A stretch of DNA of 62,651 bases, filler included, from Dugesia japonica (Eukaryota): the NCBI GenBank assembly GCA_001938525.1. It is 5 parts of 5 records of this genome, joined end to end, with 100 filler letters (N's around TTAATTAATTAA, not from the genome) between each part and the next. Parts side by side here need not be neighbours in the genome. Positions count along the whole stretch, not along the records: positions 1 to 18,159 come from MQRL01215973.1; 4 more parts are not named here. One strand, 5' to 3'. The position numbers and the translations under genes are program-made. A model generated the notes under the pieces. The model was not told the origin of the DNA. It saw only the letters and a program-made list of their open reading frames with translations, and searched no databases. Shown here piece by piece: positions 1-43,688 of this stretch (position 1 is its first letter; every line of letters begins with the position of its first letter).

Positions 1-162
1 TAACTAAATCTTTATTTAATTAATCACGCTACACGGAAACAACTGAAATTTTCTCTTCGGCGTTTTCATTGTTACGGGCGCTCCATAAATAGTTTTGGTC
101 GAATGAAGTTTATTGGGTGGTTGAAGGTAGGAGGCTTGTAGTGATGCCATTTTCTTGGGAAA

Positions 163-576
163 TCATTTCTTGTGAGCTCTCTTGGGTTTCTCGTTTATGC
201 TCCATTTGCACGGGTTGCCTTGGCAGTATATGCATTTCACTTTATCTGGACGTTCTTGAGTGCCGGCGAAATAAAATCCGGATCTGGCTATATCCTCAAT
301 GAGTTCATGCAAATACTTGGGTAAATTGAATAAGGATTTTGTGCGTATACCTTCGTCACGATATTTATCATCGAAAACTTTCATTGCACTGTACCACACC
401 TTTCGTCGTATTAAATTTTCTGGTGAGCCAAAATTTTTACGGTAGTGCATTATGTTTTGCACTATTGGACTTTGGCTGACTTCCTCTCGCCCTTGACTCA
501 TACGGAATAATTCAATATCTGGATCATTCATTATTAGTCTGGCCTCAATTATTGATAATTCCAGATCGACCTCCAT
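163..576 (-). CDS. BIR-domain (inhibitor-of-apoptosis-like) accessory ORF, C-terminally damaged
   Basis: RTKSLFNLP...IARSGFYFAG...DKVKCIYC....KW....PKRAHKK matches the BIR consensus (R..sF..wP..lA.aGFy....D.v.C..C....W...p..eH). A stop precedes the final Cys. Confidence 0.85.
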   Translation of the reverse strand: MEVDLELSIIEARLIMNDPDIELFRMSQGREEVSQSPIVQNIMHYRKNFGSPENLIRRKVWYSAMKVFDDKYRDEGIRTKSLFNLPKYLHELIEDIARSGFYFAGTQERPDKVKCIYCQGNPCKWSINEKPKRAHKK

Positions 577-961
577 TATCTACAATTATAGGCTTGGTTG
601 ATTCTAGTTATACAATACTATTTATTTATATTAATTTTAAGTGTCAGTTTATTCATGATTTTTCTCAGTTTCTATGTTTACTTGAATACATATATAGTTA
701 CTAGTAGATATTTACGTATATAGTTTATATATTCTTTATTATATTTATTATTTTTTTAAACTTCCACTCTCATTTGGATTTTAGAGAAAGCTGACTTGGG
801 TGTGAGCACTTCGGGTTTTGAGTGTCTCGATTTCCTATTTTTGTGAGTTTACCAATCCTTTGAGTTAATTTAGTTCTTCCGTCTTATTAGAGATCAGATC
901 ATGTTGTTTGGCTACTAACTCTATTGCATAATTCTGTTTTTTCTGTGGTAATTTCCAGCAT

Positions 962-1222
962 TCATCGTTTTTCTTTTATTTGTTGTCGACACATAAGGAT
1001 TTTCGCATATAAATTCTCATTTTGCAGTTGTAGAGCTTTATTTTTTAATTCCAGTTCGCACCAATCTTGGGGTTTCACAGTTATTAGAGTCTGTAATAAC
1101 TGATTCTGGCTGTGCTCCAGTTCTTCTAATCGTTGCTGAGTCCACTGGGTTTGTACTTTAGCACTATCCCATAATTCTTTCATTTCTTCGTTATGATCTC
1201 TCCATATTTCATTTATTGTCAC
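962..1222 (-). CDS. Accessory coiled-coil ORF fragment of the retroelement
   Basis: Heptad-like QQRLEELEHSQNQLLQTL and LKNKALQLQNENLYAKIL. Lies between the polyprotein end and the BIR ORF. Confidence 0.4.
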   Translation of the reverse strand: MTINEIWRDHNEEMKELWDSAKVQTQWTQQRLEELEHSQNQLLQTLITVKPQDWCELELKNKALQLQNENLYAKILMCRQQIKEKR

Positions 1223-1520
1223 TTAGGGAGGGTTAATGTTATTTTTAGTTATTGAAGTAGAACTTCTTGCCGAGTTACTACATATATGGCTTGTTATGCT
1301 CGAACTTTCTATGTCATTTTGTGAGTTTGCTTATTCATTTTCACTCGTACTGGAATAGTCATTTTCATTTTCGATCTGACTCATTTTGTCTGAATGAGAG
1401 AACTCTATTAACCACAATTATAATAACATGTATATACAATTATTATATATTTGTTTTCATCATGATTTACACTATTTACACAGATTCGAGATTAGTTTAG
1501 CAAGTCATTACCCCCGGTGC

Positions 1521-3225
1521 CTAATAAGGTCTAGGCACATATGTTGGCAATTCGTTCGATATCATCCAAAGTGGTAATTCTTCGTAATTTGGTGGGGCTA
1601 TCGGTGGATGTCGTCTTTTCCCTTTTCGGTCATGTTTCTTTCGTAGGGGTTTCGCTCGTTTACAGAATTGCAAATATATTGTTATTAATACCAGTACTGC
1701 TATTGACCCGCTTCTTATTATTATTATAGGGTCTGTTCCATTTTTGGTTGGTTTGGCGGTAGTAATTGGTTCCTTTACAGTATTAGGCTTACCCACATAT
1801 TATCATATGACCATCCTTTGGGTGGTAATTCCGACAGTTTATCATTAAATTATTTAAGAAGTTTGCTCTTTTTGTTTCTCTTTCTTCGTTGACTAACGTA
1901 GTTGATTTTTTAGTTTCCGTTGTTGTTATTATGGTTTTTTTCTGTAGTTATAACCTCTTCCACTTTTGGTCTGGTGGTGTTTAGTTTTATTACTGTATCC
2001 TGATTTATGACTGTAGTGAATTCCATTTCACACATTTCTGGGCCCAAACTACCCATATTTACTCCTTGTACAATGCATTTCCTTTAAACCCTGCTATCTC
2101 CTCATTGTAACACCATGCCCACTGACTGAGTGAATAATATTTCTGTTTTGAAAATTGTTCCATTTTCTCGTTCATTTTCAAATAATATGTATTGTTTATT
2201 TTTCTAATTCGTACCGGTCCTGGTCCTTCCTGCCACCGGGATCCCCATTTGCCAAAGGTGTATTCCGTTATAGTGTTAAATCCTTTTCCGCGGTTATTAG
2301 CGATACTTTTTTGATCCATAAATCTTTGTTTTTTCTCTTTTCCCGTTGTTTCTTTAAATACATTTTTCCAAAATTGTACATGAAATATATATTCGTTCTG
2401 TTGACAAATTTTCAAACTCTCGTCCCCTTTCCTTTTCCAAGTCCATCCTTTTTGTTGACGATTATCCACTAAATAGTAAATTAAAATATTCCGTGCAGCA
2501 TGCGTTTCGAAATGTATTTCCTCTTCGTATTCAATGTAGCTTTTGCGGCGTTTCCCTTGAAATTCCTATGCTGAATGCATCCACCAATGTTTCATACTAA
2601 ACTGCATTGCCTGACCTTCCACTGGTACATCCCCTCTAAACCATAAACTTGCCTTCCACTTATGCCATGTCAATAGGATTTAGGTTTCCTTTGTTCCCAT
2701 GATCGTGGGCTTTAGGATTATGGATTCATGACCCTATCCCGTGTGGACTTTTACTTCACGGTTTCATCCGTCTGTGCTCATTGTCCTAATATTTGTCTTG
2801 CTACCCTCAACGTATATTCAATGTTCTGTTAATATCGGCTCGTTTACCCAACATTCCTGGCTTTGTGTTCCTTTTATGGCTAATAGTATAGTAGTTAGTA
2901 TAATGTGTTCGCTAGGAATTTTATTCTGATTGAAATTCCGTATTGGATAAGCTGCCAGTGTTGGTAAAGCTAACCAAAGTAAGGTTATTCCCACGATTCC
3001 GTATATTATAATCGATGTTGGATATTCTTTCCCTATACTATTGATGAGTTTCATTGTTAGCCAAATTAATATGCCATAGTCCCAACTTGTGTTGATTACC
3101 GCCCATAATAACAAAGCTATTTTGACTATTATTTCCACTATAATCACGTTCTTGTTTTCTTGCGGTGACTCGTTTTCTGATTTTCTTGGTTCTGTTGGAT
3201 CCTTCTCATCATGTACTAATGTCAT
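1521..3225 (-). pseudogene. C-terminal membrane region: several hydrophobic helices, ectodomain, Thr-rich stalk, TM and PPxY/LPxY tail
   Basis: Hydrophobic segments in 2818-3225 end in signal-like HIILTTILLAIKGTQS-QEC, in the same frame as ORF 2059-2469. NxT sequons (NNT, NGT). TM IAVLVLITIYLQFC, a basic stop-transfer stretch, then PPNY and LPTY. Confidence 0.6.
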
Positions 3226-3488
3226 TTTTATTTTTTCGCCTTTCCTGGCTAGTTGTTTCTCTTTTTACTCCCTTTTATTCCCTTGACCCTAGAATGCTTT
3301 TCTCATTAATTTCTCCTGTGTTTGTACCCCTTCCTGAGTGTTCTCGCTATTGCTTGATTCCGATTTTTTGAGAGCCAATTTATCCGATGGTATGTCCAGT
3401 TTCGCCATGTTTTTTAGGTTGTATTTACTTTGGATGGTTGGCTCAACCATTCTCCATGGCGATTGGAATACACTCTAATCCTGTTCCA

Positions 3489-3956
3489 TTATACCAATGC
3501 ACGGTGAAAGACATGAATATATGCTAATAATTTCTCGCTGTAAATATACGTGCATGGCATGCATAATTCTTTGATGACAGATTGACGAATTGATGCTTGA
3601 ATTGGTATTTTAATTCGAGATCCATCACAGTCTTTCTTGAACCAATTTTCTGGTCTGAATAACCATGCTTTTTGATCGTAAATGGCCTTTAGTGCATTTT
3701 TTAATATTATTTGTGTTTGTTTGATACATTGAAAACAATTTTCCTCTAATTGACATATTGAAAGAGGACAGGTTATGAGCGTAATATGCATGCAACTTTC
3801 TTCAGATTTTGGCGTCCAGCTTCCTTGGCATGTGATTGTATAACATGTCGTGGCATTCATAGCCTCGATTGCGAGTGGTCGACGCATCTGATTATCTAAA
3901 CCAAAGGATACAGTTTTAATGTCTTGTGATATAATAACTAATTTATCATTAATCAT
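3489..3956 (-). pseudogene. Cys-rich putative zinc-binding domain, copy B
   Basis: ESCMHITLITCPLS...CFQC...ILKNAL...WLF...C...QASI...LCMPC..IY...FH. Confidence 0.7.
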
Positions 3957-4397
3957 AGATAATGTTGTTTAAGCTTGAGACGGATGATTAGTATTTGGTG
4001 TCTTAGCTATTTTAGGTATAACCCGTTTATTTAAAAGATTTAATTCCTTGTTGGATGGTACTGTATTTACTGCATTGGTATTTTCCTTGCCGGTTTTGGC
4101 ATGAAATTCCGGATGTGGAGCCGGACTATTTCTCTCCTTTCTTTGTTTATCCGCATATTTTAAGACGTCATCTTTTAAAAACCTCGTTATTCTCTACAAC
4201 TCTGTTTCTGTCCTTTCCTCGTCTTTCGATTGTACGTCTGTTTTCAATTCCGAATTTACATCCTTTTCCGTTAGTTCCCCTTCCCCATTTTCTTCAGACT
4301 CAGTGTCCTCGCTGAGACTTCTTTTCCTTAACAATGATTCTAAACCACTCCATGGCGAAGTATCAACTGGTTGAGACCATAATACCAATCAATCCTA

Positions 4398-4838
4398 TAC
4401 TACTAATATCGTATGGAAATTTTCAATAGCTCGAGTGAGAGTTTCGTAATAAATGCTGACACAGCGTTCGCATAGGGTGTGTACTTCATCTTGCTCCAAT
4501 GGTGCTTGAACAGTCAGCTTGTCATGCATTTTCTTACATCGTCTTCTACTGAGTTTGTCTTGTTGTAACAACCAAAGTCTGCAACCAGAGACTTCCTACA
4601 ATGCTGATTTCAAAATTGATTGAATTTTCCGTATGCATGTAAGGCAGCTTGCCTCGATTAGTGTTGGTGAGATTGGGCATGTCACCCGAGAAAAGTGAGC
4701 ACAACAGCTTTCTGGTACTGGTGTCTGTGTCTCCCGTGGAATTATAGGATATAGTGTTGTGGTACCCAATGCTTTAACTCGATGGCTTAACTGACTTAAT
4801 ACGAATACTGGGGTTGATGATTTTCCAAGTATCATCAT
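4398..4838 (-). pseudogene. Cys-rich putative zinc-binding domain, copy A
   Basis: ESCCAHFSRVTCPIS...CLTC...ILKSAL*...WLL...C...QAPL...LCERC..IY...FH, read through one stop. Aligns with copy B. Confidence 0.7.
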
Positions 4839-5029
4839 AGCTTGTTGCGATCGTAATGGGTAACTATGCGATATATTTAACTCCGTATTCGCCGACTTAT
4901 GGCCTACCTAGCCCTCTATGCTCCGTTGCAGTGGGTGCAGTACTTGTGGTTGGCGTAATTTCTTCCGTTATTGCGGCCTTTTTGCATAAGTTGGGGTGGT
5001 GTATTTTAGGTTTCTCTAAGAGATTTTCT

Positions 5030-6010
5030 TTTTACGAACTTTGAGATTGGTTTCGGTGATCTCTATTACTTCGTAGGGCCCTTGCCATGGCCTTTTTAAT
5101 TTCGATGTAGGGCCAACACAAATATCTGGCAAATTGATCAATACCATGTCGCCTTTTTTAAATGAATGTTGCATTGCCGTTTTATCGTGTAAATCCTTAT
5201 AGCTTTCGTGGTAAAATCCTACATTCTTCTTGGCCTGTTTCCATATTTTCTGCAAGGTTTCTTTGAAATTTGCAGCGAAATCCGTTTCGTCTTGGTATTG
5301 TGTTATAGGTGGTTGAAACTCTAAATCAATAGGCATGTTACACTCTCTGCCATACATTAATCCAAATGCAGTGTACTTAGTAGCAGGATGCACACTCATT
5401 CGGTATGCAAATAGACAAAGCTAAACATGTTTATCCCAATTATTCTGTTCTTTTTGTGCATAACTAGACATCATATTGATCAATGTTTTATTAAATCTTT
5501 CCGTTAATCCATCTGTTTNTGGATGATAAGATNATGTCCGTAACTGGTGTATTTTGAGGAAGCTCGATATCTCTGCTAATATGTTGCTCATAAAGTTTTT
5601 TCCTTGATCGGTCAATATCTTCTTGGGTGTGCCATATCTGATAAACAATTTCGTACCAGAATATCCTCTATGGTAGTTGCTTTTTGATTTTTCATAGGGA
5701 ATGCCTATGGGAATTTCGACAAGTAATCCATAATTGTTAGTATGTATATATTCCCACTCAGCGTTGGGGGTAGTGGTCCAACTACGTCCATTGCAATGAT
5801 TTCCATTGGTGCTGTAGGTACGGTGATTGGTTTTAATAATGCTTTCACTCGTTTGCTTGTTCCTCTTCTGGCAGCACATATTTGGCATTTGGTCACTGAT
5901 TCCGTCATGTGTGACCAGTAATATTTCTGTCTTAGTTTTGACTCGGTTTTCTTATGGGACATGTGTCCTCCTAGTACTCAATTGTGATATTGTTCGAGTA
6001 ATTTATCACA
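5030..6010 (-). pseudogene. Integrase (HHCC, DDE core, GPY/F), frameshifted
   Basis: GHMSHKKT..YYW..CQIC; AMDVVGPLP, IMDYLSK; YGTPKKILTDQGKNF; YHPxTDGLTERFNKTL; KLKRPWQGPY. Confidence 0.95.
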
Positions 6011-6319: not shown

Positions 6320-7788
6320 CTTGACAGACAATCGGCATTTGAGTTGGTTTTACCTGTTTTAAATTTTAAAAGAGGACAATAATTCTGCATTGCTAATTGC
6401 CATTTTGCCATTCTATTCCATCATAATGGTTTCTGAGCCATGAAAGTGATTGGTAAGTGATCCGTATAGATTAGCACCTTGTGACCATGTATGAGTGATC
6501 GAAAATGTTTAGTAGCTTTCATGATTGCCATAATCTCTCGTTCCGTCGTGCTATAATTTAACTCTGCGACTTGAAATTTCTCGTTAAAGTACGCTACTAC
6601 CCTTTCTCTTCCTTGTTCATCCAATTGGTTTAATACAGCACCCATCGCGTATCCGCTAGCGTCAGTGGCTAATATAAATGGCTTTTTGAAATCCGGATGT
6701 ACCAGAATTGCTGCGGTAAGTAATTTGTCCCGCAATGTTTCAAATGATTGTTGTTGCTCCGTCCCCCATATAAAGGCAGTATCTTGTTTGACCAATTCTT
6801 GCATGGGATTTGCGATCTTTGCGAAATCTTTGATAAATTTGCGGTAATGATTTGCGAGTCCTAAAAACTCTTGTATTTTGAGCACACAATTAGGAGGTGC
6901 TAGATTTCTGATTTTCTCGGTGTTTCTCGGATCAGGTTCTTTTCCTTTGTCCGATATTAAATGCCCCAAATAGGTTACTTTATTCTTGGCCCATTCGCAT
7001 TTGGTAGGTTTCACTTTCAAGTTCCATTTTTGTAAACGTATAAACACACTACGTAAATCATTGAGATGTCCTTCAAACGTTGGCGAATATATTAGCAAGT
7101 CATCGATATATGCCATACATTGCGAGATACCATGTGTTACATCAATCATCATCCTCTGAAATGAGGCAGGTGCATTAGTGAGTCAAAAAGGCATGCGGAT
7201 GAACTGATATAAGTCTTTGCTTGTAGAAAATGCTGTTTTCTCCCTATCTTCCGGTTTAATCTGTATTTGCCAATAACCACTTCGCAAATCTAATGTGGTG
7301 AATATTTTGGCGTTACACAGTAACTGTAACAACTCATTGATGTCTGGCAGTGGATACGTGTCCTTTTTAGTTTGTGCATTTAGTCTTCTGTAATCGATGT
7401 AGAATTGCTGTGTCCCATCTTTCTTATCCACTATTACCACTGGTGACTGCCAAGGTAAGCAGCTAGGTTCTATCACACCGATTTTCACTAGTTTGTCTGT
7501 TTCTTTGTTTGCAAACTCCTTTTTCTCTACTGTCATGGCATATGGTTTCTGCTTGCTTATGGTTTCGTCTGTTAACGGAATTGTTTGCATTGTAGCTGCA
7601 CACATACCTAGTTCCTCATCAGTCCACGCAAAAATATCTCTAAATTCTTCCAATAATTGTAATATTGCCTGTTTTTGATCATCTGACAGAGTTTCCGTCT
7701 CAACTTTAAATGTCCTATCTAATACTGGTTCGACATTTATCTTCTCTATCTCGTCTGTTTCTGGTTCGATGGGGGTTAGAGTACCCAT
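6320..7788 (-). pseudogene. pol: Reverse transcriptase + RNase H (Ty3/Gypsy), with internal stops
   Basis: PWQSPVVIVDKKDG, IDYRRLN, YIDD (7099-7110), YLGH, FLGLANHYRKFI; RNase H TDASG, YSTTERE, YTDH, ADCLSR. Confidence 0.97.
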
Positions 7789-8010
7789 TCGGGAATTTGG
7801 CTTGATTGTGATGTCTTTTTCGGTGAAGTTGACCAGACTAACTGTTACTTCTCCACTTTTGTTGACCGTAGTTATTCCTCCTGCCGTAGGTAACTCATAC
7901 TGTTGCGCAAATCCATCATAAAGTTCGAAATAACAATCTCCTTCGTATGCACTTTTGGTACTTACTACGCAATATATTTAGCATCTACTCGGCACTAGTA
8001 TTTCCTCCGT
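7780..8010 (-). pseudogene. Post-protease beta-rich (dUTPase-like/beta-clip) linker seen in some Gypsy pol proteins
   Basis: Manual translation EILVPSRC*IYCVV...GEVTVSLVNFTEKDITIKPNSRMGTL. No intact dUTPase catalytic motifs are visible. Confidence 0.4.
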
Positions 8011-8089
8011 TGTGAATATTTCGTGATCTTTAACGTGAGTAAACCCCTCCAGAGATTGTAACCCTAACGTCGAGAAGTTCAATATGCCA

Positions 8090-8370
8090 TTTTTCATCAA
8101 AATTGGAAGAATGTCCGTGCCCAAAATGCACTGTCCAGCCATCTCTACTATTATCATGTGGTGTTTAATTTTATTGTCCAGATATTCTACGTCGAAAGCT
8201 AATTCCCCAAAAAATTTAAGACTACTTCCGTTCGCCACATCTGCGGTGATATTGGTGGGTAATATGTTTTTATAATCTGTTATCGTGATTTTTTCTATTG
8301 ATAATAACGAAATTATTGCTCCTGTATCTATAAAGGCCGTTGTAGATCTACCGTTGATTTTAACCATAAT
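8090..8370 (-). pseudogene. Retropepsin aspartic protease domain 2
   Basis: VKINGRSTTAFIDTGAIISLL (DTG at 8320-8328), VANGSSL, CILGTDIL. Confidence 0.9.
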
Positions 8371-8719
8371 TGTTAATACAGGTCTGCCGCTGAGACTTGT
8401 GCATACCAAATCTGAAAGGTTACGATTGGTATCATGTTGTTTTTTGTCTTTCCATCTTGGTTTCCGTTCCTGAAACCTTATCCAATCTTCTTTTATCATA
8501 GTGGAGGTATTGGTAGTTTTCTGGCGACCTTGGTTTGCGTTATTATGCTCCCCCTTGTATGATGATAGTTGGGTCTGTTGGTTGATAGGTGTCTGATTCT
8601 CTTTTTGTGGTCGTTTTCGTTCAATTACTATTCGAGTTTTCTGATAATCTATTGGCGCGTATTCTCGATCGTGATTTTCTCGTATTGTTAGTTTTTTCAA
8701 ATCTAGTATTCCCTCCGGG

Positions 8720-9000
8720 CTTAGGCGGGGTAAGAGATCTAATCCCAGTAAGTAGTTGAAAGTTAATTCATTCATTATCTGTAATCTATGCCATAGACGA
8801 ATTCCGTAACTTTCTATTGCACATATTGCTTCCCCAACGGGTGATATTTTTTTCCGGAGGCCGTGATGACAATTCCTTTAGTATTGGTTATTCGGAACAG
8901 TCGATAATCTTCTAATATTCTTTTATGGACTAAGGTCGTACTCGCTCCCGTATCGATAACTGCTATTACCCATCTTCCGTCTATTTTTATCCTTTTTTGT
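8720..9000 (-). pseudogene. Retropepsin aspartic protease domain 1
   Basis: IKIDGRWVIAVIDTGASTTLV (DTG at 8946-8954), ITASG, and after a frameshift YLLGLDLL. Confidence 0.88.
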
Positions 9001-9559
9001 AATAGTTTCGCTTTCTGAGAAATCATCATGCATACAGTTTGAGTTTCTAATTTATCATCCTCAGTGATCTGGTTATTCGGAGAACGCGAACTTTGGTCAG
9101 TAACTCTTCGGTCAATAGTTGATAAATTATTCTCTGTAAATAATGTCATATTAAGAGCTTGTGGTGGACTCATATAAGGGGTGTTGTACATGGGACCTGG
9201 TGCCCATATCTGTTAGGGTTGTTGATTCCTGGGTTGCCAACCATATTGCGGGTAGGCATTATAATACATTTGGGCTGGTGCTGGTGTATTTTCATTTCCT
9301 CCGAGTTTTAATGCATTTCTTAGTCGTTGCATTTTACTGATTTTTTCATATTGTTGTCTTTTAAATTCTGCATCGTATTCCATGGCGGTTTTATAACTGG
9401 GTACATGTGACGTTCCACTGCTTTTTCCTCTATCGTCATCACTGCTGCTACTACTTTTACTTTTGTTCTTAAATCTTTCTTTGAATTAGCTGAAGTACGA
9501 TATTTTCTTTTTAGCATTGCTCATTTCTTTGCACAATAGTCGAAGTTGCATTATGACGT

Positions 9560-11150
9560 CTTTGTCCGATCCTCTTATTTGCCCCAATTTCCGAATGAAT
9601 CGTTTTACTCTGTCAATATCTTTAGAGTGACTATTAATCACCGTTGTTTTGGCTAAGAATGGGAATATTCCGGTTACCATTTTCCAATTCACTTTCTTTT
9701 CTCTCTTTTAGATTTTGAAATATGCAAACAATTGGGTAATCACTATTCGTGCTACCGAAATTATTAACATCACTCCCAGCAATCCTGCCATTGCTTGGGC
9801 AAATGTAATAAATCTTCCCCACATTTTCCGCATGACATTTTCGGTGGCTTTCTGGAAATGATCTGCTGACAAGAGTGTATCATAATTTACACGTACGTCT
9901 ATGTTAGTTCCACTGGTTAATTGTACTATATTCCATAGAATTTGCATCCTACAGACTGAAAACAGCATATATTCCCTAGCTTTCTCTAAATCTTCCTTAC
10001 TGTAGATACCTCCCTTGTTTACATCAATTGGTGTAAATTGCATACCTCCATTTAATCGTAGCATTGAGAATTTTAGTGGTTCGACGCCCACTGCCATTCG
10101 TTGGGGAAATCTTATCCAAGAACCGTCTGTCATTACGTATTGCGGTCCAAATACATTAGAGCAGTTTATGATATTTGGCCTATAACCCAGTGGTGATATT
10201 ATCCAAATAATTGGTTGTAAATAACGTTTCTCATTGTTATGGATAATTTCTATTTCATTATAGCAATGTTTTGGATTGGATGAAAATTCTGCATCCATGG
10301 CCTTACATTTGTATAGGTACATTACTTTTCCTACTACTCGACCAAATTGTCCTTTTTCCAAGGGAAGTAGCGGAGTGACACTATCGGGATTCGTAATCGC
10401 CATTGCTAACTTTGTCTTCAGTATTTCCTTATTCAATGTGGAGTCATTTTGTATAAGGTCGTGGTAAATTCGTCCGATAGTATCCTGCATTCGGTGGAAT
10501 AAATTGTTCATTTTATTATTGGAATATAGATGTAGTTTGATATCTTGTGACATTACTGCAGCTTGAGCCGTTTTTATCAGGTCTTCTGACTCGAATATTC
10601 CTATATAGTTGGTTTTATATACTATTTGTCCACATTTTGACTTAGAATTTCCTTTAATCAGACGAATGGTCTCGTCCTGCTCCGAGGATATTAACACCGT
10701 GGGAGTTGTGTGCCATTGCTGATCATATGATTTCGGACCTGATCTTATCTTTTCCTTGAGATTATCTATCATATCCTTTAGATTACCCTCTTTTGGAGCT
10801 TGATCAATAGGTGCTATAGCTCGTTGTCCTTGGTATTCACTGAACATAGTCTCTTTTAGATGAGCTAACTTGCAGTCCTGGTGGTCTACCTTGTACGTCA
10901 GAGTTGATGTACCTGTATTACATGATCCGTCCTCTGCTTTGCAATATAACCTGCCTTTCATAGTCAAATCCTGAGCATCGAAAAATGCTTCGTATTCCTT
11001 GAGCTATACTGTAAAGGTTTCAATCGCTACGGCATACTGACATAATTTTCCTCGTATAATGTATCTACTATACTCACAATTACCTTTGTGTAAAGATATG
11101 CTTCCTGCTGCTTCTATTGGTTGATCGATTACATGCCGTATTACTACTTC
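9560..11150 (-). pseudogene. env: Envelope glycoprotein related to chuvirus / class III (gB-like) fusion proteins; N-terminal part missing
   Basis: Motifs match my recollection of chuvirus-type G: AAGSISLHKGNC, CKAEDGSC, KCG..YKTNY, LYSNNK, LAMAITNP, GQFGRVVGKVMYLYKC, CYNEI...YLQP, IINCS...DGSW, GGIYS, then the membrane region WGRFITFAQAMAGLLGVMLIISV. Confidence 0.8.
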
Positions 11151-11629
11151 GGTTGGCTTGACATCATCCGTCGAATTCTCGTGGTATCTTTCCTGTGATA
11201 CCGTTGCTAATCACTTAGTTTGGTGGTTTATTGCTGTTGCTAATCGTCTCTGTTTCAATGCTTCTTCCTCCTCTGGGTTTCCTGGAGGTTTCGTTCTCCA
11301 TCTGCCTCTATTATGAGGTTCAGTAATCGTTTCTGCATCCACTCTGGTGCGTACTGGTTTTGGTGGCGCTTCTTCCTCTTCTGTCTCTATAGGATTTTCC
11401 ATTTCCAAAGGGTGATTCGTGCCCATTAGGTCATCCATTACCGAGGATGGCAATTCATTTGCTATTCTACTCAATATTGGCGATAATGGTTGTTCTTCTA
11501 ATAAATCTTCCTCGTATAAATCTACCTTGCTAGGATCGTATTTTTTACTTCCTATCGGTTCTTTAGCTTTTAATTCTTCACTTTCTTTCTTTGGAGGTGA
11601 GTATCTTGTGATTTGTAATTCATTCTCGT

Positions 11630-14600
11630 CTAATTCGTTTGCCGATGGAGATCCGAATATTTAATGTTCCTAATCTTAGGTTTAACTAAATCTATTTTCA
11701 TTATCCAAATTGGGGTGGTATCTTCCACTATTCCATCTTCATCCAGGAGTTTGTATGGTGGCTTAAATGGTAACTTATCTCGTAGGTGTTTTACCGCATT
11801 ATATACTGGTATCTTAACGGTAATTTTATCTCCTTCCGGATCGATTATTCTGAATTTGATTTCTAATGGGACGGTTTGTCCCATCTCCGCTTTCTGCTAT
11901 TTAACCAAAATTTTATTAAACTGAATCAGGATCCCGTACGTGAGATACCTTGACGGCCATAATTAGTCGTCTCAGCTTTCTGAGATCTTCTACTGCCAGA
12001 TCTTGTTACAGGACTATATTGGATCGAGGTATGATTTTTGGCTTTATTAACTTATCGCCTACTAGCAATTCGAATAATTTTGGTAAATTGTCTTCCGGCT
12101 TCTCATCTTTAATTGGTGTGTTGGTCAGAGCTGCCACAATCTCCACTCGTTGTTTACTTTGTTCTTGTTTAGGGAGCTTGGCTCTTGCGAACACTAATGG
12201 ATGTATCTATTCTATATAATATTCCACTACTTCTCTGGCTTCCTGCTTCCATTTTTCCTCCAAGACCCGTGATCGTCGTCTCTCCTCACTCTTTGCTGTT
12301 ACGTAAATTTTTAATTTAGTGCCTGGCCAGACCCCCATATATTTCACGGGCAACCTCATTTGGTCTGGTTCTATTACTTGGTTGTAATATAGTACTATAT
12401 CGTCTTCCTGTAATGGTTGTCAGGAGTATTTTCATTATTACTCGCGCCAGACTTCCCCATGTTTTACTGTCTTTGCATAACTCGATATTTATCTCCATTG
12501 TTCTATCGTCGACTTATTCAAACAGTTTACCACTGTTGATTTCTTGTTCGTATAAACCCTCTAGTTGTTGTAACACTTCTTACATGGACTTTACTGCGCC
12601 TGGGGTGTAGTCTTCCGTTTTTCGTATTTGGAGAAAGGTATTTTCACCTGGTCTCAACCCTATGTCCACTAAATGTTGTTTTCCTTCAAACTTTATAGGG
12701 AATCTCAAATGGTCGCTTGTGACTATATAGCCGTTCTGCTGATCAGCTATATCCAATGATTCTATAATTTCTTGTAATTCCGACGCTGATGTGCTGTCAA
12801 AATGTGGTAAATGCATTAGGGCCAACTCTGGTTCCTTTCTAGCATTTTTGTTTGGTGTCTGATATTCTATGGTGACCTGGAATTCCTCTCCCTTGGCACT
12901 GGCCCTAACTGCACCAATATGCAGCTTGAGTACTGATTCCCATTTATTGCGTTCTTCTTTTGCTATCTCGGTATACTTTGACAAATCCGTTAGCAAATTT
13001 AACGCCTTCCAAAATGTCGCCCTGGGTATTCTTCCCAAAAAATAGCAGAAACCAGAAATTATCTTCGATATCTGCTCCGCTTGAGGAGAACTGAAAGAAG
13101 CAACGAATTCTCGTTTAAATGGTAATAGTCTGGGTTTGACTATGTCTTCTGAGATTTCTTCCTCCTCCTCTTCCTTGTCTGATGTCAGGACTGTGATTTC
13201 GGAATCATTATTCCTAACCATGTTTACTTGATCTTTGTTTTCTCCATAAGTGTTTATGAGGCGTTTATTCTCTACGGGTAAAATTTCTTGTATATATAGA
13301 CTCATCATATTGAATATGAGTTGATCTGTATCCGGGATTTTTGGTATCGGAATGTCTATTGTCATTTTCAGCGGTGTTAGCTTGATTTCAGTGATCTCTC
13401 CTGGTTTAATATCGTGTAGGAAAATGTGATCCTCTTTCTTGGCTAATATGATCATTGTTGCTCCCGCCTGCATTTTATATGACTAATGCGATTTATGCCA
13501 TAACCATTTCTTTATTGGTTTTATAATATGACGGATAGTTAATCCTTCCAGAGTTATCATATATACCTTTTTTATGCTTCCTTCTTTGCTGAGGAGGCTT
13601 ACTCTGATGGAATATTCGGATATAGGGGATGTAATTTGTAATTCCTCTTCATATAAGTTTTTCTCTTTCCACCATTGCGCTTGGGCCCACAAGCTGAGTT
13701 GACCATAGGTTGCCAGATCCCGTAGGTTATTCATCATTTTCCAAAATATTTTGATATTCAATACCGGCCGAGTTTCCCGTGTAACTCTTAATAGATACGT
13801 GGCGGATTCCTCAGTTATTGGTTTCGTATAATTCATCCGGATATCACGTATTGTCGGGGTCCCTTCCAAAAATTCAATTTATTTTGTGGTGATTATTGAA
13901 AGGTTATCAATATTCTGCGTTTTCTGGTTTTCTTTTACATGTTCCTTAATACCCGTCAATACCTCTGATACATATAATTCCGTTATTTCATCCATTCGTT
14001 CCTCGAGGTCTGGCGATTGGGCTATCCGGGGCTCCTCCTCTTCATCTAACTCGTATATTTCCCCTGGCTTTGCATGGCATTGTAATATGTGTTTGTCCTC
14101 GTCATCCGTCTCGACCGATTTGCCGTTTATGAATAGAGGTACCCTAATTAATCCATATTCTTGCCACTTATCGGTAATGGCATCCATCAAATCCATCATG
14201 GTTATTCCTTGTGGCTTTAATCGACTGTATTTAGTCATTTCCTGTTCATTTTTACCTATATTCAGATATAATTTATAGTCCTGAATTTTGGTAGTTGCCA
14301 ATATTTCTTCGGCATACTTTTGTCTAATCAGGAGCCATTGCTCTTCAATTTTTCCCGGTATTTCCAACCCATCATATATGTCATAAATTCTATTCATTAT
14401 CATCCAATAAGTTTCTCGAGGTAACCTTTCTTCTCTTCCTGTACTCTGTTAACCATATCCTCCACTTAACGCATCGCTACTACTTCCCTTGACGCCATCT
14501 GTCGCATTCTTATCATGTTGCATTTACCCTCTCTTCTCTCCAACCGTTGTCTGAGAAAATCATTACTGCTTCTTTTCCTCCTTTGTCAACTTGTCTTTCT

Positions 14601-15950
14601 TTGCCAATACCGTGGACAGTATCTTTATTTTAATAGGTTCTACTTCTTGTTTACATAGATATTCCATTTCTCCCATGATTTCTAATGCCGATCTTCTGGT
14701 TTTCGTTACCCATACGTCATAGTAAATACCAGTGTGTTTATCCAATACTACAATTTCAATATCATCTCCAGGTTTTACTCCAAAATCATACAAATTGCTT
14801 TTTCGGGCATTAAAATCTATTATAGCACTTGGAGTACATACGAACTTATCTGTTATGTATGGATACCCGGCTTTATTCAGTGCACATTCCAGATCTTCTA
14901 CCATTAATCCCGCGAGGGTCAATTTCATATTTTATTCTGGTTTATACAACAATTCTTGATAATCTGATAATCCCATGTTGCATATTACTCAATCGTAATG
15001 TACTGGTAACCATTCTGTCCAGTCACTTTCAAAATCAGTAACCAATTTTATAACTTCCAATAACTCTACTAAAGGATTAGTCAATTTTAGGTATACTTCC
15101 CTCTTAATCGTATAATGGAGTTTCTGGGCGGCTACCAGTATCTCATCAATTCGAGCTAACGATAATCGCGATGCTTCACTTTGTTCCATAACTGGATAGT
15201 CCATCAATCCTACTTTTTCGAATTGCTTCTGCAAGTAGTTCTGAGACTTAGTGGGAGCTATCTCCTTAAGGAATTTTTCTTCAAGATTATGATATAATTC
15301 GTCCGTCTCTATTTCTTGAATTACTATTTGTGGTCGGAATACCAAACCCCAATTTATCAATTTGATTACTGTTGTTTCATGGGGTCGTGTCCCGTAGTAA
15401 ATTAGATTTTTATCATCAGGAAGAATGTTGATCCTTATATTACCTATTTGCAATCTATGCCTGTTCCCCTTTCCATCCCATTGATGTTGATCGTTAAACA
15501 GTGGTAAATCGAGAAACGGGTTTACCGTTATACCTTTAATACCGTCTATTTTGCCCCATTTTATTTCGTTAATGGCTTCTTTTAAGTGTCGTACTGTCAA
15601 TCTTTTTAGTGATAGTTTTAATTGTTTTGGAATTACCTCGGAGTTATTATGCCTTCATATTGAACTTCGAATTCTTAATTTTCTATCTTAGTTTCTTTAT
15701 AAAGCTCGGCGATGTAATCCGATATTATTTTCTGCCAGTTGGCTTTTAATTTTGCGTGTACTTGTGGGTGCTGGTATAATCGAAGTAACTGATTCATCAC
15801 CCGTCTTCGTCTTGTGGTTGTCGTTGATGTTTCAATTGTTTTATAGAGCATTTCATTGGTCCACTCGAATTCTGGAGACGTAATCAGTATTTGTTTCCGA
15901 GTGTCTTCCATTTCGGTAACCTCCGTTGTTTCATCATGTTAGTTATAAAT
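11630..15950 (-). pseudogene. Array of about 5-6 diverged helical + ubiquitin-like modules in the polyprotein
   Basis: Recurring Ubl-like motifs: TVRHLKEAI..DDKNLIYYGTRPHETTVIKL; MVEDLECAL..NLYDFGVKPGDDIEIVV; TMMDLMDAI..LFINGKSV..HILQCHAKPGEIYEL; TIRHIIKPI..HIFLHDIKPGEITEIKL; SASELQEII..HLVDIGLRPGENTFLQI; and EIKFRIIDPEGDKITVKI..AVKHLRDKL. Confidence 0.6.
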
Positions 15951-16199: not shown

Positions 16200-17410
16200 C
16201 GGATTTCAATTATAATTTGTTTGATTTCCATTTGGATATTCTTTTGCCATATGCCCTCTTCTGTTACACTTATAACAAACAGTATGATTTTTCAAAAAAC
16301 ATGTTTTTACATTGTGATTGGTTTTCTTGCAGTAAGTATAAAATCGATTGTTATTATTATTGTCTCTACTTCTACAATCTCGGGCTATATGTTCCCTTCT
16401 TCCACAGGAATTACATTGTATATCCGGGTTATTTTTCCAATTGTTCCGAGGTGCATTAAATCCTCCACCATTTCCTCGGGGGTAGTTAGGTCTATCATTC
16501 CTATTATTCCGTTCCTGCCATGGGGTCAGGGTTTTCATCATTGATTGGGTGTTAGGTATGAAATCTGATATTCGAAGTGTAGTTTCCTCTGTCTATCCTT
16601 CTACTTTGAATATTCGTTCTGATGGTCTATCTGCTACAATTCACAATGTGGCCAGAGCATCCTGTAGAGTCACTGGCTTACTCAACTTTACCATAAGTTT
16701 GGCGTTCTTGTCGCGTAATCCATTTAAGAATATAGCTAACACTTGACTGTCTTCCAGTTTATCTCCTAAGGCCAGTTTGCCACGCCTCTTGAGTTCCATC
16801 ATATAAGCTTGTGGAGGAAGCTGTTTTTTCCGGTTGGTAAATGAGTTATTTCTGTAGTTTTAACTTTCTAGAATAAAAATTTACTTCTAATTGTCTTTAC
16901 TTAATTTCTTCCGAGGTTTTCCCTCCCGTACGCAGGCTTCTTTAAATATGTTTCCTTTGTTTCCCAACGTGTTCTACCTTTAACGTACTGGTTAACGTAC
17001 TTAGGCCTTTACGTGGTCTTCCTTCCTTGCCTGGGCTTCCTTTAATTTCTTCCGAGGTTTTTCCTCCCATATGCAGGCTTCCTTCAATATGTTTCCTCTA
17101 TTTTTCTACGTGGTCTCCCATTAACATCCTCGTTAATGTACTTAGAGCTTCGCGTAGTCTTCCTTCCTTGCGTAGGCTTCCTTTAATTTCTTCCGATGTT
17201 TTCCCTCTTATACGCAAGCTTCCTTAAATATATGCGCATAACATATCCAATAATACCCAATTACTTCTTCAGTTATAGTCATTAGACAACTGTTGCGGTT
17301 GCTTTCTACAAAGGTGATCAATCTTCTGATTGCAACTTACCAGTTGGGGATCCCTATTTTCCATAACTGTGTCTGTAATAAATATGTCTGGATATTCTTC
17401 CTATTATCTT
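16200..17410 (-). pseudogene. gag: Gag (capsid C-terminal region plus three CCHC zinc knuckles), disrupted
   Basis: Knuckles CNSCGRREHIARDC, YTYCKKTNHNVKTC and CYKCNRRGHMAKEY (two have C>Y changes). Upstream manual translation QAYMMELKRRGKLALGDKLEDSQVLAIFLNGLRDKNAKLMVKLSKPVTLQDAL fits retrotransposon capsid. Confidence 0.88.
16901..17228. repeat. 141-bp (47-codon) tandem repeat, about 2.3 copies, inside gag
   Basis: The unit start ttaatttcttccga recurs at 16901, 17042 and 17183. Confidence 0.9.
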
Positions 17411-17895
17411 CCTGAAATTTTCTTCCTGATTAGCTTCCTTAAATTTATCTTCCTTTTATTTAGTTTCCTTTTTCTTCCGTTAATTTACTATCTTTTAATT
17501 TATCTTCCTTTAACTTGCTTTATTTTATCTTCCTTCCTTTAATTTATTCCTGGTTGTGAGTTTCCATGATGACTTTTGTTGATATCTCGATATGATCTCT
17601 GAAAATATAAAATAACAATTCTTTATTGATTTTTCTTCCTACATTTACCCGGTTCTCCTATTCCTTTCTTTTTATTTACTCCTTATAATCACCTTAATTT
17701 AATATCATCATATAACTTCCTATTTTCATAATCTGCTATTTCCATATGTTATTTCATAATTTTATAATTTCGATAGTTTATTTATTTCATCATTTATTGA
17801 ATTATTTTTACTAATAATATTATACAACAGTATATTCTTTATTATTTTATTCCCCACCTTTACGGGGTTTCGTTTCATGAAAATTTTATTTTATA

Positions 17896-17912
17896 ATCCT
17901 TGCTGAGCCCCA
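17896..17912 (-). promoter_or_regulatory. Primer-binding site, tRNA-Pro-like
   Basis: Minus strand reads TGGGGCTCAGCAAGGAT next to the LTR end, resembling the tRNA-Pro-type PBS TGGGGGCTC...GGGAT. Confidence 0.7.
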
Positions 17913-17920
17913 AAAATTCT

Positions 17921-18159
17921 TGTTGGAGTTCCACCTGAGTTGGGTGAAGTAAGCGTGACTGGGGAAAAACAGCCCTCAGGGGACCCTTTCAAGAATTTAA
18001 CCTAACGCCACAAAGTTAGGCATTCAGCAAATGGTGGTTGACCTCTCGCCTAATGGGAGGTGCATGCCCATACGCCTTTGGATTTGGGTTCACTAGTTTC
18101 CCAATTATTTCGAATTTAATAAAAATTAGAAAGAGTCAAACAAGGTACACTTTATTTTA
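17921..18159 (-). repeat. 5' LTR (U5 end) of the giant element, truncated by an N gap
   Basis: On the minus strand it ends ...CTCCAACA, 8 nt upstream of the PBS. It is clearly homologous to the copy starting at 22627 (tgttgg.gt.ccacctgagtt...ccctttcaagaattta.cctaa...). Confidence 0.85.
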
Positions 18160-18259
18160 NNNNNNNNNNNNNNNNNNNNNNNNNNNNNNNNNNNNNNNNN
18201 NNNTTAATTAATTAANNNNNNNNNNNNNNNNNNNNNNNNNNNNNNNNNNNNNNNNNNNN
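18160..18259. other. Artificial contig spacer N44-TTAATTAATTAA-N44 (also at 28138-28237, 43589-43688, 52421-52520)
   Basis: Four identical 100-bp spacers, each with a six-frame stop 12-mer. Confidence 0.95.
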
Positions 18260-19959: not shown

Positions 19960-22900
19960 ATGGAAATTAAGCGATTACTTTTTTTTTCAATATTTCTTTC
20001 TTTTTTTAATTGTTTTTTTGCTGAATTATTCACAGCATTAGCTGATCTATCAAATGTATTCAAAGCCGAACAAGAGCTTGGTGAATTAATTCAAAGCTAT
20101 GTTGAAAATGAAGAAAAACGACTTAAGGAATTAGTCAAATTTGCCAAGGAACTTCGGGATTATAACATCACCACTAAAGATTTAGAAAATAAAAATGAAA
20201 TTGAAAAATATTTTTCCAATCCAATCAATTCTTATTTATTTACGAGAAAATTCGTTTATGATTGGAAAGAAAAACTAGAATTGGTTAATGATTTTGTGAA
20301 TAATAAATTTAGAAAAATTTTACAAGACGAAGTGGATAAATTCCAAGAACGATTACCAAATTATGAAGATATAGATGGATCGATCGATGCATTAATACGA
20401 TTGCAGGAAACATACCAGCTGCAAACACATGATTTAGTCATTGGAAAAATACAGAATTTTCAGTCAAATGTTAAACTAAGTGCAGATGATTGCTATAAAA
20501 TCGGAATTCATGCTTATAATAAAGAAAATTATCCCATAGGTGTAAAATGGTTTAAAGAGTCATTGAATTTATTTAAAATCAACAAGATCGATCCTGGAAG
20601 TACTTTAAGTGAGAGATCAATTATTGATTACCTTTCCTATTGTCTGGGATCCATTGGAATGTATAGAGCTGCTTTAAATTATACCAATGAATTGCTTCAA
20701 TCGCCTAATAATGATATTCGAGACCGATTGATTGAGAATAAAAAATACTATTTGAAAAAAGTATCAGAGGAAAAAGTTCCAAATTATGATGAAAGTAAGC
20801 AAAAAATATTTATAATTTTTGATTTTTTTTGGTAATTCAAGATCCTGGTTTTAGTGATCATAGCGAAGGAAATATTTATGCGGCATTGTGCAGAGGAGAG
20901 TCGCCAATAAAGAATCCATCAGAAAAGAAAAACTTGAAATGCTACTTTAAATCAACTCATCCGTTTTATAAAATTGGACCATTAAAAGTTGAGATAGCAT
21001 TCAGTAAACCAAAAGTGATAATATTTCATGATTTAATACATGACGGAGAAATTGAACATATTAAAATGGTTGCAACTCCTAAAGTGAATTTTTATTTTAA
21101 TATTTTATTAAGTCAATTTTTGCTTTTAGTTAAACAGAGCTACAGTCAGAAATCCAGCTACAGGAATCCTGGAGTTTGCTAATTATCGAATCAGTAAAAG
21201 GTTTATTTTTGTTTTTGATTTTTTATAAAAATATTAAATAATATTAATTTACAAGAAAATATTTTGAAATCGGTGAAAAATTTTAACAAAATTTATATGA
21301 TATTAGTAAAAAAACATTCTGATTTTGCAATAAGATTTCCTGATTTTCTCAGTTTTAAGAACTTAACCTTGATTTTTAAAAATTAAAATGTCACTTTCAG
21401 AAAATTAAGGGGCTGTCCAGTTATTATGCTATCAAATTTTAGACAATTTTTTAACCTCCTTCCCCCTTTGTTAACTGTCAAACTTTCAGTGACCCCCTAA
21501 TGAAATTATGTCGATAATTAAATACCCCCTCCTACAAAAATTAACAAGATTTAACTAATTTTTTTTGATTTATTAAATTTATCGTTAAAAAAATTATTGA
21601 CATCAATTTATCTTCTTTTTTTTTGTCACCAATTGACAAACTTATTCAAACCTCTTCTCCTCAAATTAATGAAAATATTTTAATTTTATTATGATATAAT
21701 CTTCATGTCACAATTTTTTATGTTCAAAGAAATATTATTTGAAATAGTTTTTAGAAATAAATAATTAATTAATTTTTTTAAAATTTAATTCCGAGAAAAA
21801 ATTCCATTTTAATGTTTTTTAATTTTGGAATTATAATCCTTATTTTTTTTTACTTTTTTAATCATTAAAAAATAAATAAATAATAAATTTTCATGCCTAT
21901 AATGATAATTTGTTCAGTCTAAAGTTAGTTCAGATTTTAATGAATTTCCTAAGGAATATATCAAAACAAATAATCGAACTTTTTGCACTGTATACAACAA
22001 TATTGTTAATTATGAAAAGAGATTTTAATTTATAAAACAGAAAAATTAAAACATCAATGCTAAAAATTTTACCTTCAATTTTTTCGTCATTCAACGATCA
22101 GCATATTAATTAATATTTTATTATTAATTATAATTAATGTTCAAGCAATTATAGTCTCACTAAATAAATGAATTCTTCATTAAAATAGTTGGGTTTTATG
22201 TAACTTTTTTAATGCAACAAAAATTGTCCCACAAATAGTACTTCAACACAAATGTAGAATATAATTCTGCTTTTTATTTTATATTTGTTTTAATCATATA
22301 ATCTATGAATCATTGTTTTTTTTTAAATCAAAAGTTTATAAATAACTTATTCATTACCGTAATTTGCTATTGATTAAATAACTCTTTTAATCCTTTCGTT
22401 ATCACGAGTGTATGCAATTTTTTTTGTATAAGTAGCTTTATAGATAAAGAGCATATATTTTCGATAGATGTTTTTTGTATGTCTGATAACTAGAAATGTA
22501 AATATTTGCCTTGTAAATATGTTTATTACGAAAAATATTTTTCGTTCAAAATATTAATGTTTTTAATATAATACGAATAGAAATACGTATTAAGAGCAAT
22601 ATGACCTTGAAAATATTTCTTAATGATGTTGGGGTCCCACCTGAGTTTGTGTAGAACAAACACGGCCCTCTGGAACCCTTTCAAGAATTTACCTAATGCC
22701 CCTTATTAGGTTTTCAGTATAGAGCGGTTGACTTCAATCATAATTTGAATTGCACGCCCATATACCTTTACTTTCAAGTTCATTAGTTTTCCCTTAAATT
22801 TGATTATTCAAAGAAATCAACAATGTCTTTTCAATAACATTTATTTGGGTTTTTAAATTACATAAGGTTGAGAGCACCCGGGTCTAACCACTGGGTTAGC

Positions 22901-27689: not shown

Positions 27690-29942
27690 TATAAATTTTT
27701 GACTGATGATTAACATTAAATTAATTAATTCAATTAAAATTTATTTTATTTTAAAATTCAAAAATTGGAATTAAATTTTTTAAAGATATACTATTTAATT
27801 TTTGCTTCTTTATATAAATTTAGTATCTAGGAACTTTAAAATTTCTTGAAATTTATAAATAGTCACATTGAATTTGCAAAACATATTTTGTACAGTTACG
27901 TTACTTTCAAAATCTGACTTTATTAAATTACAATATTTATTATAAATAAAAATTACAACAATATAATAACAGTTAAATAAAGGTTAATCATTGTAACTCT
28001 CCCATTCTTCTAAATACTTTCCACTTCTTTAACCATTCTATTCTTCTTTGAGAACATTTTATTTCTACTTGTCGATCTAATATGGTCCATGTTATTGGAA
28101 ATCATTCTTCTTTATTTTGCGTAGTTCTTCACGAAGTNNNNNNNNNNNNNNNNNNNNNNNNNNNNNNNNNNNNNNNNNNNNTTAATTAATTAANNNNNNN
28201 NNNNNNNNNNNNNNNNNNNNNNNNNNNNNNNNNNNNNTATTCATTTTCTTTTTAAATTTTAATTTATTTCCTTCACTGTTTTTCATATTTCACAAAAGGC
28301 TGTTTCAGCCCAACATAAGCTTCCTTATATAACCTTAGTATAGTTATTAAAGATAATTAATATCACTATAAATAAACTATATAATCAACTATTTAATATA
28401 AGGCAAAATTTATTTTTAAAATATTTATTAATGTATTCAAAATTATTAAAATAAGGGAATGCACATGTTTATTTGGATCGCTTAGGCGTTTACTCAAGTA
28501 AGTATTAGACTTGAATGGAAAATTAGAAATGTAAGAATAAATTAATAGGTTGATTAAATTGACTGGTGGGTTTGATGCTGGATTTTTTAAAAGATTGAAC
28601 TTGACTGAAATGGTTGCTGTGTGGTGATGTTTATATGTATGTGTGTACGTTTATTTTCATGTATTATTGTGCTTATTTTATTACAATTGTCTTTCCCCAA
28701 CGATAATCTTGTTCATAGAAATCAATTTATAACGATAATGTATTGTAAATCATATTTGGATTATCGATTCTTTATCATTAAACTCACGCAACTATTGATT
28801 TGTTTTAGTAACAATGTCTAAAGCATCTCAACATAAAATTGATAGAAAGAAATGTTAGATGCAGATTTCACGTAAAATTATTGAAGAACTCGAAAATGAC
28901 GAGAAATAAACAGCGAAATTTGAAGCGAGTTTTTAGATATTTAAATAACATTAAAAAAACTTTTAAAAAAACGTAATTCGAAAAAGCGAAACAAGATTTG
29001 AAATTCGGTTGAGTTTAATTTTGACTTCAAGTCAATATTTAACTCCTTAGACGTAAAAAGGTTAGAAATGATTATTGTTATTTGATTCTAAATTATTTAT
29101 ATTTTGTGTATTGATCGAATACAATTTAATATAGTTGGATTTCAATTGATTCCAGCATCTTACAGCAAAATAAAGTTACAGTCATACAAGAGATTTTCAT
29201 ATACCTTTAGAACTATTATTCCACTGTAAATAAATATTTGATTTAAATATAAAATTAGATAATTGAAATTGTATAAAAATTATTCCATTGATGTAAATTC
29301 TAATTAACCATATTATCACAAGATATTCTTTTTATGTGATATTTTTAGCAATAACCATTATAATAATATGAAGCAGCAAACCTCTTCTAAATATGTGTAA
29401 GTTAAAATGAATTTTGTTGCATAATATTAAATATAAATATTTAACAAAATTTTAAAGTGAACCTTCTAAATTTTTTGCAAAATATTCTGATTTTACCATC
29501 TAAGACAAGGTTTATATTATATTAATAAATTTATATTAATTATTTACTTAATTTATTTTAGTTATTTCTACGAAGCCAATATTAATAAATTAATTTTATA
29601 GTTTTATTAAAAAAAAGATTTATGTATTTCTCAATATAACTTTTCAACTAGAAATACATTTGCATCAATCTTTACTATATTAAAAAAATTTGTTTAATTA
29701 AATAAAGCAAAATAAAAATAGTTTGCTTTTGGACCGTTTATTTAAATTAAACTAATTTGCTGCAAATAATATTTTTCAAATTTTGATTTGAATTATAACA
29801 TTTGAATTAATTTTATCGTAAATATCAGATTAGTTTAATTATACTACCATTAATTATTAATTTTCATTAAATTAAAATTAAGTTGTAATAAATTAAATTT
29901 TTTTCATTTTATTAATTACTTTATTTTTTTAGCTATTTCGAA

Positions 29943-41705: not shown

Positions 41706-41859
41706 GAAACAAAATCAATTGTTCTATGTTGTAGTTGCGATCAAGGAATTACTGAAATGAAAAGATCCATTTTGGTAACTGAACCCATTTTAGTAAAGAT
41801 CCTTAAATCTTCACGTATGTTTATTAGAATTTATTGGCAAAAAGGCACTAAGACTTTGA

Positions 41860-43588: not shown

Positions 43589-43688
43589 NNNNNNNNNNNN
43601 NNNNNNNNNNNNNNNNNNNNNNNNNNNNNNNNTTAATTAATTAANNNNNNNNNNNNNNNNNNNNNNNNNNNNNNNNNNNNNNNNNNNN

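Follow-up and report, generated by a model that had tools for sequence, protein, structure and literature searches.

A broken BIR/IAP gene, likely captured from a spliced host mRNA by a decayed Burro-like Ty3/gypsy giant, in a Dugesia japonica assembly

The Element and Its Surroundings

The stretch of DNA analysed here, the window, is 62,651 nucleotides long, filler included, and is assembled under the name Dugesia japonica (GCA_001938525.1). At its left edge a BIR/IAP-like ORF lies on the minus strand (163–576), running 137 codons from its ATG to a premature stop. To its right, and on the same strand, extends a large retroelement. The element region, from position 1 to about 17,900, has a GC content of 0.33–0.41 and a steady strand skew, against a GC content of mostly 0.14–0.35 in the rest of the window. 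The minus-strand order is gag, env, two proteases, a dUTPase-like domain, reverse transcriptase (RT), RNase H, and integrase, a Ty3/gypsy element of at least 18 kb; the Pfam matches place protease, RT, RNase H, and integrase in that order behind gag, the arrangement by which Ty3/gypsy elements are recognized.

Reading along the minus strand, a candidate 5′ LTR remnant of 245 bases (17,915–18,159) runs into a 100-base gap. In this candidate, the strand skew falls to 0.01 and the GC content climbs to 0.42. It is followed by a candidate primer-binding site (17,895–17,913) with a TGGGG(G)CTC core, which we take to be of the tRNA-Pro type. The LTR and primer-binding site calls are tentative. Neither ARAGORN, in a search for tRNAs, nor Rfam returned a match in the window. 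A 141-bp tandem repeat, with two full copies and a partial third (16,901–17,231, no strand assigned), lies upstream of gag. The C-terminal part of gag (16,209–16,859) has three CCHC-type knuckles, two of which look degenerate on inspection; PF00098 scores two stretches at 16,592–16,209 (E 8.2e-9). A long, unassigned coding region of about 5 kb with stops and frameshifts (11,007–15,938) separates gag from env, and a fold prediction for its segment 13,482–12,583 was uninformative (single-sequence pLDDT 33.5). The env gene (9711–11,003) encodes a Monjiviricetes-type fusion glycoprotein (PF24664, E 2.3e-50; Atlas first match 0.94). Next are two tandem aspartyl protease domains (7981–9212), scored by PF13975 as two separate pieces (E 1.4e-5 and 5.4e-6). 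Each has a DTG motif, and the pair could act as a single-chain pseudo-dimer. The segment at 6424–7977, which contains stops, holds RT and RNase H (PF00078, E 1.6e-9 and 1.5e-14; PF17919, E 4.8e-35) and, between protease and RT, a dUTPase-like piece whose PF00692 match (E 0.0024) is under the curated cut-off. The integrase (5019–5977) is frameshifted and has an H2C2 zinc domain, an rve core, and a C-terminal piece (PF17921, E 3.7e-7; PF00665, E 8.9e-4).

Behind the integrase lies a 3′ block of broken ORFs, all on the minus strand. A Cys-rich ORF of about 470 codons with five stops (3492–4907) directly follows the integrase and matched no known family. The next ORF (1521–3264), also broken, is membrane-protein-like by its hydropathy profile: it has two hydrophobic stretches near its start, an aromatic-rich middle, a Thr-rich stalk, a further hydrophobic stretch near 1730–1670, and a Pro-rich tail. 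It gave no significant match in Pfam, the PDB, or viral contigs. Its signal-like stretches, its transmembrane stretch, and a PPxY-like motif in the tail, presumably a viral late-domain motif, resemble those of a type I membrane protein, and the ORF may encode either an accessory glycoprotein or another envelope. An open piece of 86 codons (965–1222), helical or coiled-coil in look by eye and with no Pfam family, precedes a non-coding spacer (580–964, no strand assigned). The original prediction had placed the BIR ORF downstream of the polyprotein, on its strand, and behind an AT-rich spacer. The strand is the same, and the spacer is AT-rich at 580–780 (GC 0.21, against 0.40 in the ORF). The ORF is indeed downstream, but not directly so, since about 4.4 kb with three broken ORFs intervenes. 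The main frames of the element total 3965 codons and contain 26 stops and seven frame changes; the element is therefore dead.

The remainder of the window has an AT-rich, animal-type flank. Gaps of 100 bases, each with the TTAATTAATTAA spacer at its middle, occur at 18,160–18,259, 28,138–28,237, 43,589–43,688, and 52,421–52,520, so a join between the element and a host gene is not proven. A host prolyl 4-hydroxylase alpha gene (19,963–21,200, plus strand) begins with a single long coding exon, and its introns are short and AT-rich. Exon pieces on the plus strand at 29,916–35,296 give weak matches to LisH (E 0.007) and to the WDR47 cross-over (E 0.0012), and judging from these matches the region is likely a WDR47 gene. 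Mobile relics include an ISXO2-like transposase piece (41,691–42,134), a second integrase piece (44,585–44,944), and a weak transposase-type HTH piece (39,111–39,482).

The BIR ORF and How It Is Broken

The ORF is an intronless frame that starts with an ATG at 576–574 and stops with a TGA at 165–163. Its BIR domain proper (157–360, minus strand) has Cys codons at 234–232 and 225–223, a Trp at 204–202, and a His at 174–172. A lineage-specific segment ahead of the BIR (361–447, minus strand) is common to the IAP relatives P0002, P0006, P0015, P0059, and P0088 (alignment A1). The Pfam BIR family PF00653 matches the ORF with 38.5 bits, well above its curated cut-off of 22.9 bits, at E 1.8e-9 over profile positions 17–61 of 70. 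Sequence searches of the PDB gave 42 matches at E ≤ 0.01, every one bearing an IAP-family name. A six-frame search of the window finds the pattern C-x2-C-x6-W-x9-H once, and 200 shuffled versions of the first 18.15 kb never contain it. A structural model of the BIR based on six aligned rows was weak, with a pLDDT of 55; in a fold search with it, all 38 matches listed were IAP BIR entries, none reaching E 0.001. The BIR feature at 576–163 is real. The CxxC..W..H consensus read here by the original prediction, and the Pfam BIR search that it proposed, have both held up.

The copy is nonetheless broken. BIR spacing is retained by both Cys, the Trp, and the His, with three zinc ligands kept, and the frame meets its premature stop three codons past the His. 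Reading through the stop as X extends the BIR profile match by only four positions, and no Cys appears at the place expected for the fourth ligand. The next 20 codons behind the break are also free of Cys in all minus-strand frames (one of them meets a stop after 16 codons), and tblastn with the five closest IAP relatives found no match past 157 in any frame. With no fourth-ligand Cys and no IAP similarity past 157, it is the end of the BIR that has been lost, and not one codon alone. The original prediction of a stop before the last zinc ligand was thus right about the stop and too modest about the damage. We take the four-ligand spacing of a BIR to be C-x2-C-x16-H-x6-C, which is present in P0002, P0015, and P0059; the ORF has three of the ligands only. 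By this comparison the ORF is a BIR pseudogene and not a working BIR, and the copy is predicted neither to bind zinc nor to function. It does retain an acidic residue four places after the Trp, presumably part of the peptide-binding groove of XIAP-type BIRs.

Behind the break, positions 1–156 of the minus strand hold repeat-family sequence without IAP similarity in any frame. This segment contains no polypurine tract of 12 or more bases and no RING; in P0002, the RING begins about 220 residues after the BIR, which here would be beyond the window edge.

Association of the ORF with the Element

The base composition of the ORF (GC 0.40, AT skew −0.22) is close to that of the polyprotein (0.38, −0.25), against 0.26 and 0.00 on the host side, and the 156 bases behind the ORF have the GC content and skew of the element, not those of the host. 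The original prediction had named two findings that would speak against it: a 3′ LTR between the polyprotein and the ORF, and other copies that never carry the ORF. A blastn search (word size 7) of the window found no second copy of the LTR candidate in 1–5100, the best match being 24 AT-rich bases elsewhere (E 0.006). As for other copies, contigs of two DNA runs from different studies, X1 and X4, were placed on 1–5500 at 82% likeness, and many diverged contigs in both runs carry the BIR region.

The contigs cover all 30 bins from the BIR to the integrase. They number 3647 (X1) and 3264 (X4), with only 201 and 151, respectively, at least 99% alike to the window copy. Among the 40 variant positions listed of 962, a set that does not include the BIR stop, those inside the ORF have 22 and 15 differing contigs at 212 (X1 and X4, respectively), 22 and 19 at 305, and 35 and 28 at 570. 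In the neighbouring element the numbers are 20 and 20 at 786, 22 and 25 at 1523, and 19 and 21 at 4448, so that the ORF resembles positions 786, 922, 1523, and 4448 in this respect. Fewer contigs, 3 to 9, differ at the listed places in mid-stretch, from 1645 to 4121. The sequence behind the break is itself multi-copy, with 14 and 9 contigs differing at 111. At the stop codons at 1523 and 4597 in the 3′ block, all or most other contigs carry another letter, and those two breaks are therefore not family-wide. No contig bridging the BIR to pol is found among the 16 pieces listed, each of at most 500 bases; one X4 record connects 473 to 1433.

Because the ORF is multi-copy together with the element, shares its composition, and has no LTR copy in between, it likely lies inside the element, whose 3′ LTR would fall past the window edge. 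The summed contig depth of the integrase bins (5153–5500), a quantity kept out of copy-number estimates, is roughly 10 to 80 times that of the BIR bins. Judged from the placements, far commoner related elements share the integrase but not the 3′ block at 82% identity. A high depth in bin 737–920 was set aside, as the depth is ordinary at 786 and 862, pointing to a low-complexity AT run.

Origin of the Captured Gene

Among 1.84 billion representative proteins, the ORF has 388 relatives at E ≤ 0.001. The best of these, P0002, is a 483-residue protein with a BIR and a RING and is 47% identical to the ORF over residues 14–138 (E 1.4e-25). Since this nearest relative has a RING, a survivin-like reading of the ORF was set aside. 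A short motif ahead of the BIR is found, among the proteins fetched, only in the ORF and in P0002, P0006, P0015, P0059, and P0088, whose names are all uninformative. In a tree of 48 of 168 BIR stretches, picked by score to P0002 with a few named rows added, these six form a single branch with support 100/99; the alignment includes the shared segment ahead of the BIR, which favours the grouping of the ORF, and the inner nodes are not starred.

The DNA record of P0006, L001 (GC 0.27), has a GTAAGT donor at 902, exactly at the end of the P0002 match, with stop-rich sequence behind it. An intron in L001 is likely, judging from the donor site alone. In the window ORF, the similarity is continuous through this site. 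When a spliced mRNA is captured at reverse transcription, the element copy is expected to lack an intron that the host-type gene has; we propose that the ORF likely arose in this way, from the spliced mRNA of a host IAP gene. The IAP clade also includes P0015 and P0059, which are likewise continuous through the L001 intron site and sit on long branches. They may be transcripts or further element-borne IAPs.

A word-index protein search with the BIR ORF yielded none from four candidates. Among longer proteins, the same kind of search returned only snake and mammal NAIPs (13 of 3318) and no form fused to a polyprotein, which is weak evidence. Viral contigs, scanned with env, RT, alignment A1, and the membrane-like piece as queries, yielded no relatives; a MOAP1 match was rejected as weak (E 0.46); and the baculovirus IAP genes showed no specific sequence link to the ORF.

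Proposed Role and Alternative Explanations

We propose, with a probability of roughly 0.7, that the locus holds a broken BIR/IAP gene, likely captured from a spliced host IAP mRNA by a Burro-like Ty3/gypsy giant and likely carried as a 3′ accessory gene, and that the ancestral IAP kept cells that were transcribing the element alive. IAPs bind caspases or IAP antagonists. In the ancestor, the IAP would have been made from a separate 3′ accessory ORF with a BIR or, probably, a BIR and a RING. Its BIR groove would have been the binding site for caspases or IAP antagonists, and had a RING lain behind the BIR, as it does in P0002, the protein would also have ubiquitinated these targets, allowing cells that transcribed the element to survive. 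Both the window copy and the rest of the element have since decayed. We infer the capture route, the position inside LTRs, the planarian host, and the past function, and the anti-apoptotic role at the level of the element is borrowed by analogy from Burro1. Expression was surveyed in roughly one quarter of the reads of each of two oligo-dT runs (X9 and X12), which share a species label, out of seven raw RNA runs. Neither run has reads on 1–552; on 1–5500 there are 14 (X9) and 3 (X12), all under 90% alike.

Two other accounts concern the status of the ORF itself. It might be a processed IAP pseudogene that lies outside the element or was inserted in this single copy, as its intronless and broken frame, its place at a contig edge, and the lack of a long contig linking it to pol would allow. 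We consider this very improbable: many diverged contigs carry the ORF, in numbers like those of the flanking element sequence, its composition is that of the element with no LTR copy between, and the X4 record spans 473 to 1433. Alternatively, the IAP might have been captured already short, or have lost its end early, and have been a neutral passenger that never protected cells in this family. The abrupt end of similarity at 157, with multi-copy sequence behind it (14 and 9 contigs differing at 111), is in keeping with such an origin, as are the RING not seen in the window and the ORF without RNA reads in both runs. Against this stand the three zinc ligands, the Trp, and the motif ahead of the BIR, all kept at 47% identity to P0002 and with an end branch of 0.47; this retention suggests past selection. 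Complete BIRs are, moreover, present in P0015 and P0059 of the same clade. A passenger origin seems to us unlikely, and capture of an IAP that once protected cells remains the preferred reading.

A further question is whether the capture is that of Burro1 or another. A separate Burro-like lineage, perhaps living in a host that is not a planarian, could have captured its IAP independently of Burro1. The BIR is an ORF of its own, about 4.4 kb behind the integrase; the two proteases and the membrane-protein-like ORF are absent from the Burro description as excerpted (PMC6431247); and MATH, BCL2, and ankyrin domains were not found in the element. However, the sections of that description available to us have Burro repeating the env position, the dUTPase position, the three gag knuckles, the tandem repeat, and the BIR; they allow Burro accessory domains to be separate ORFs or polyprotein parts; and they report domain detection by HHpred, unlike the searches used here (PMC6431247). 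Independent capture is on balance quite improbable. A bolder reading, which we regard as rather unlikely, would have a separate lineage of Burro-like endogenous viruses organized like complex retroviruses, with env in the polyprotein, a tandem double protease, and a 3′ block that combines a second membrane glycoprotein with an IAP captured independently and by retrocopying. If it were true, IAP capture would be a repeated strategy of such elements and not a single event in Burro1 ancestry.

Comparison with Burro and Other Systems

Burro/GYPSM1 elements are giant gypsy-like planarian LTR retrotransposons (Jurka 2007; Grohme et al. 2018; both via PMC6431247). According to the portions of PMC6431247 available, their internal region is up to 25 kb and the total over 30 kb; env is in frame between gag and pol, matches mononegavirus fusion proteins, and is called the first such case; gag has three knuckles, and a dUTPase-like domain separates protease from RT; the elements carry motifs of the BIR, BCL2-like, MATH, and ankyrin kinds; and decaying fragments with stops and frameshifts occur in Dugesia japonica. 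Other sources, also seen in part, describe Burro elements as large and the planarian genome as over 70% A/T (PMC11410931, PMC13238120), and BURRO1 as highly abundant and active (PMC8532177).

The present element matches this picture in its very large internal region (at least 17.9 kb up to the window edge, against up to 25 kb in Burro), its three CCHC-type gag knuckles, its tandem repeat, and its decayed fragments. Its env, at 11,003–9711, lies between gag and pol, here between the knuckles and the proteases; its dUTPase-like domain, under the PF00692 cut-off, is between protease and RT; and a BIR cargo is present. Set against the available text, it differs in having two protease domains, a BIR that is a separate ORF behind three further ORFs, and main frames of about 3965 codons against 4873–5140 amino acids. 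Neither hmmscan nor phmmer found the MATH, ubiquitin-like (Ubi2/SUMO-like), BCL2-like, or ankyrin domains of Burro in the element's broken frames. Likened to Burro by description, the element agrees in env, dUTPase, and BIR, and these four other domains did not turn up; we therefore call it Burro-like and not a proven member of Burro-1 to -4. Given the reported abundance and activity of BURRO1 (PMC8532177) and the few RNA reads here, the family is probably distinct from Burro1, or else its host is a different species.

The original prediction of captured anti-apoptotic cargo thus stands in part: capture from a host IAP is likely, given the P0002 clade and the absence of the likely intron, but the implied novelty is not supported. 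BIR cargo, held to be rare in LTR elements, is already described for Burro with the same layout in the available part of PMC6431247. An LTR element with a host anti-apoptotic gene is striking, but it is in print for Burro, and a functional test has been reported for Burro1. In titles and abstract starts of the open-access literature, we found no report of IAP cargo in another LTR lineage. The locus opens no new kind of system. The locus does add a decayed family whose IAP stands as an ORF of its own at the 3′ end, a clade (P0002, L001) that may be the host source of the gene, and the absence of an intron, pointing to RNA capture; it could help to date the capture and to show whether it happened once or several times.

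A close parallel is the B-IAP of Burro1, an acquired IAP with a BIR and a RING and a reported anti-apoptotic role (Lee, Poulet, Allikka Parambil, van Wolfswinkel, Dev Cell 2026, as relayed in the available part of PMC13465017). In both cases an IAP with a BIR domain is carried by a giant gypsy element, planarian in Burro1 and presumably so here. The Burro1 protein is reported to be functional, whereas the BIR here is cut short, the window shows no RING, and neither RNA run has reads on the ORF. Cellular IAPs of the BIR-RING kind (XIAP/cIAP/DIAP1 type) share the BIR sequence and fold, and P0002 is 47% identical, the segment ahead of the BIR included; the ORF differs from them in being without the likely L001 intron, the fourth zinc ligand, and everything beyond. 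The baculovirus IAP genes are host-captured viral IAPs (PMC5713413, seen in part), and there too a host IAP resides in a virus-like element and is presumed to keep the host cell alive, but the carrier is a large DNA virus and not a retroelement.
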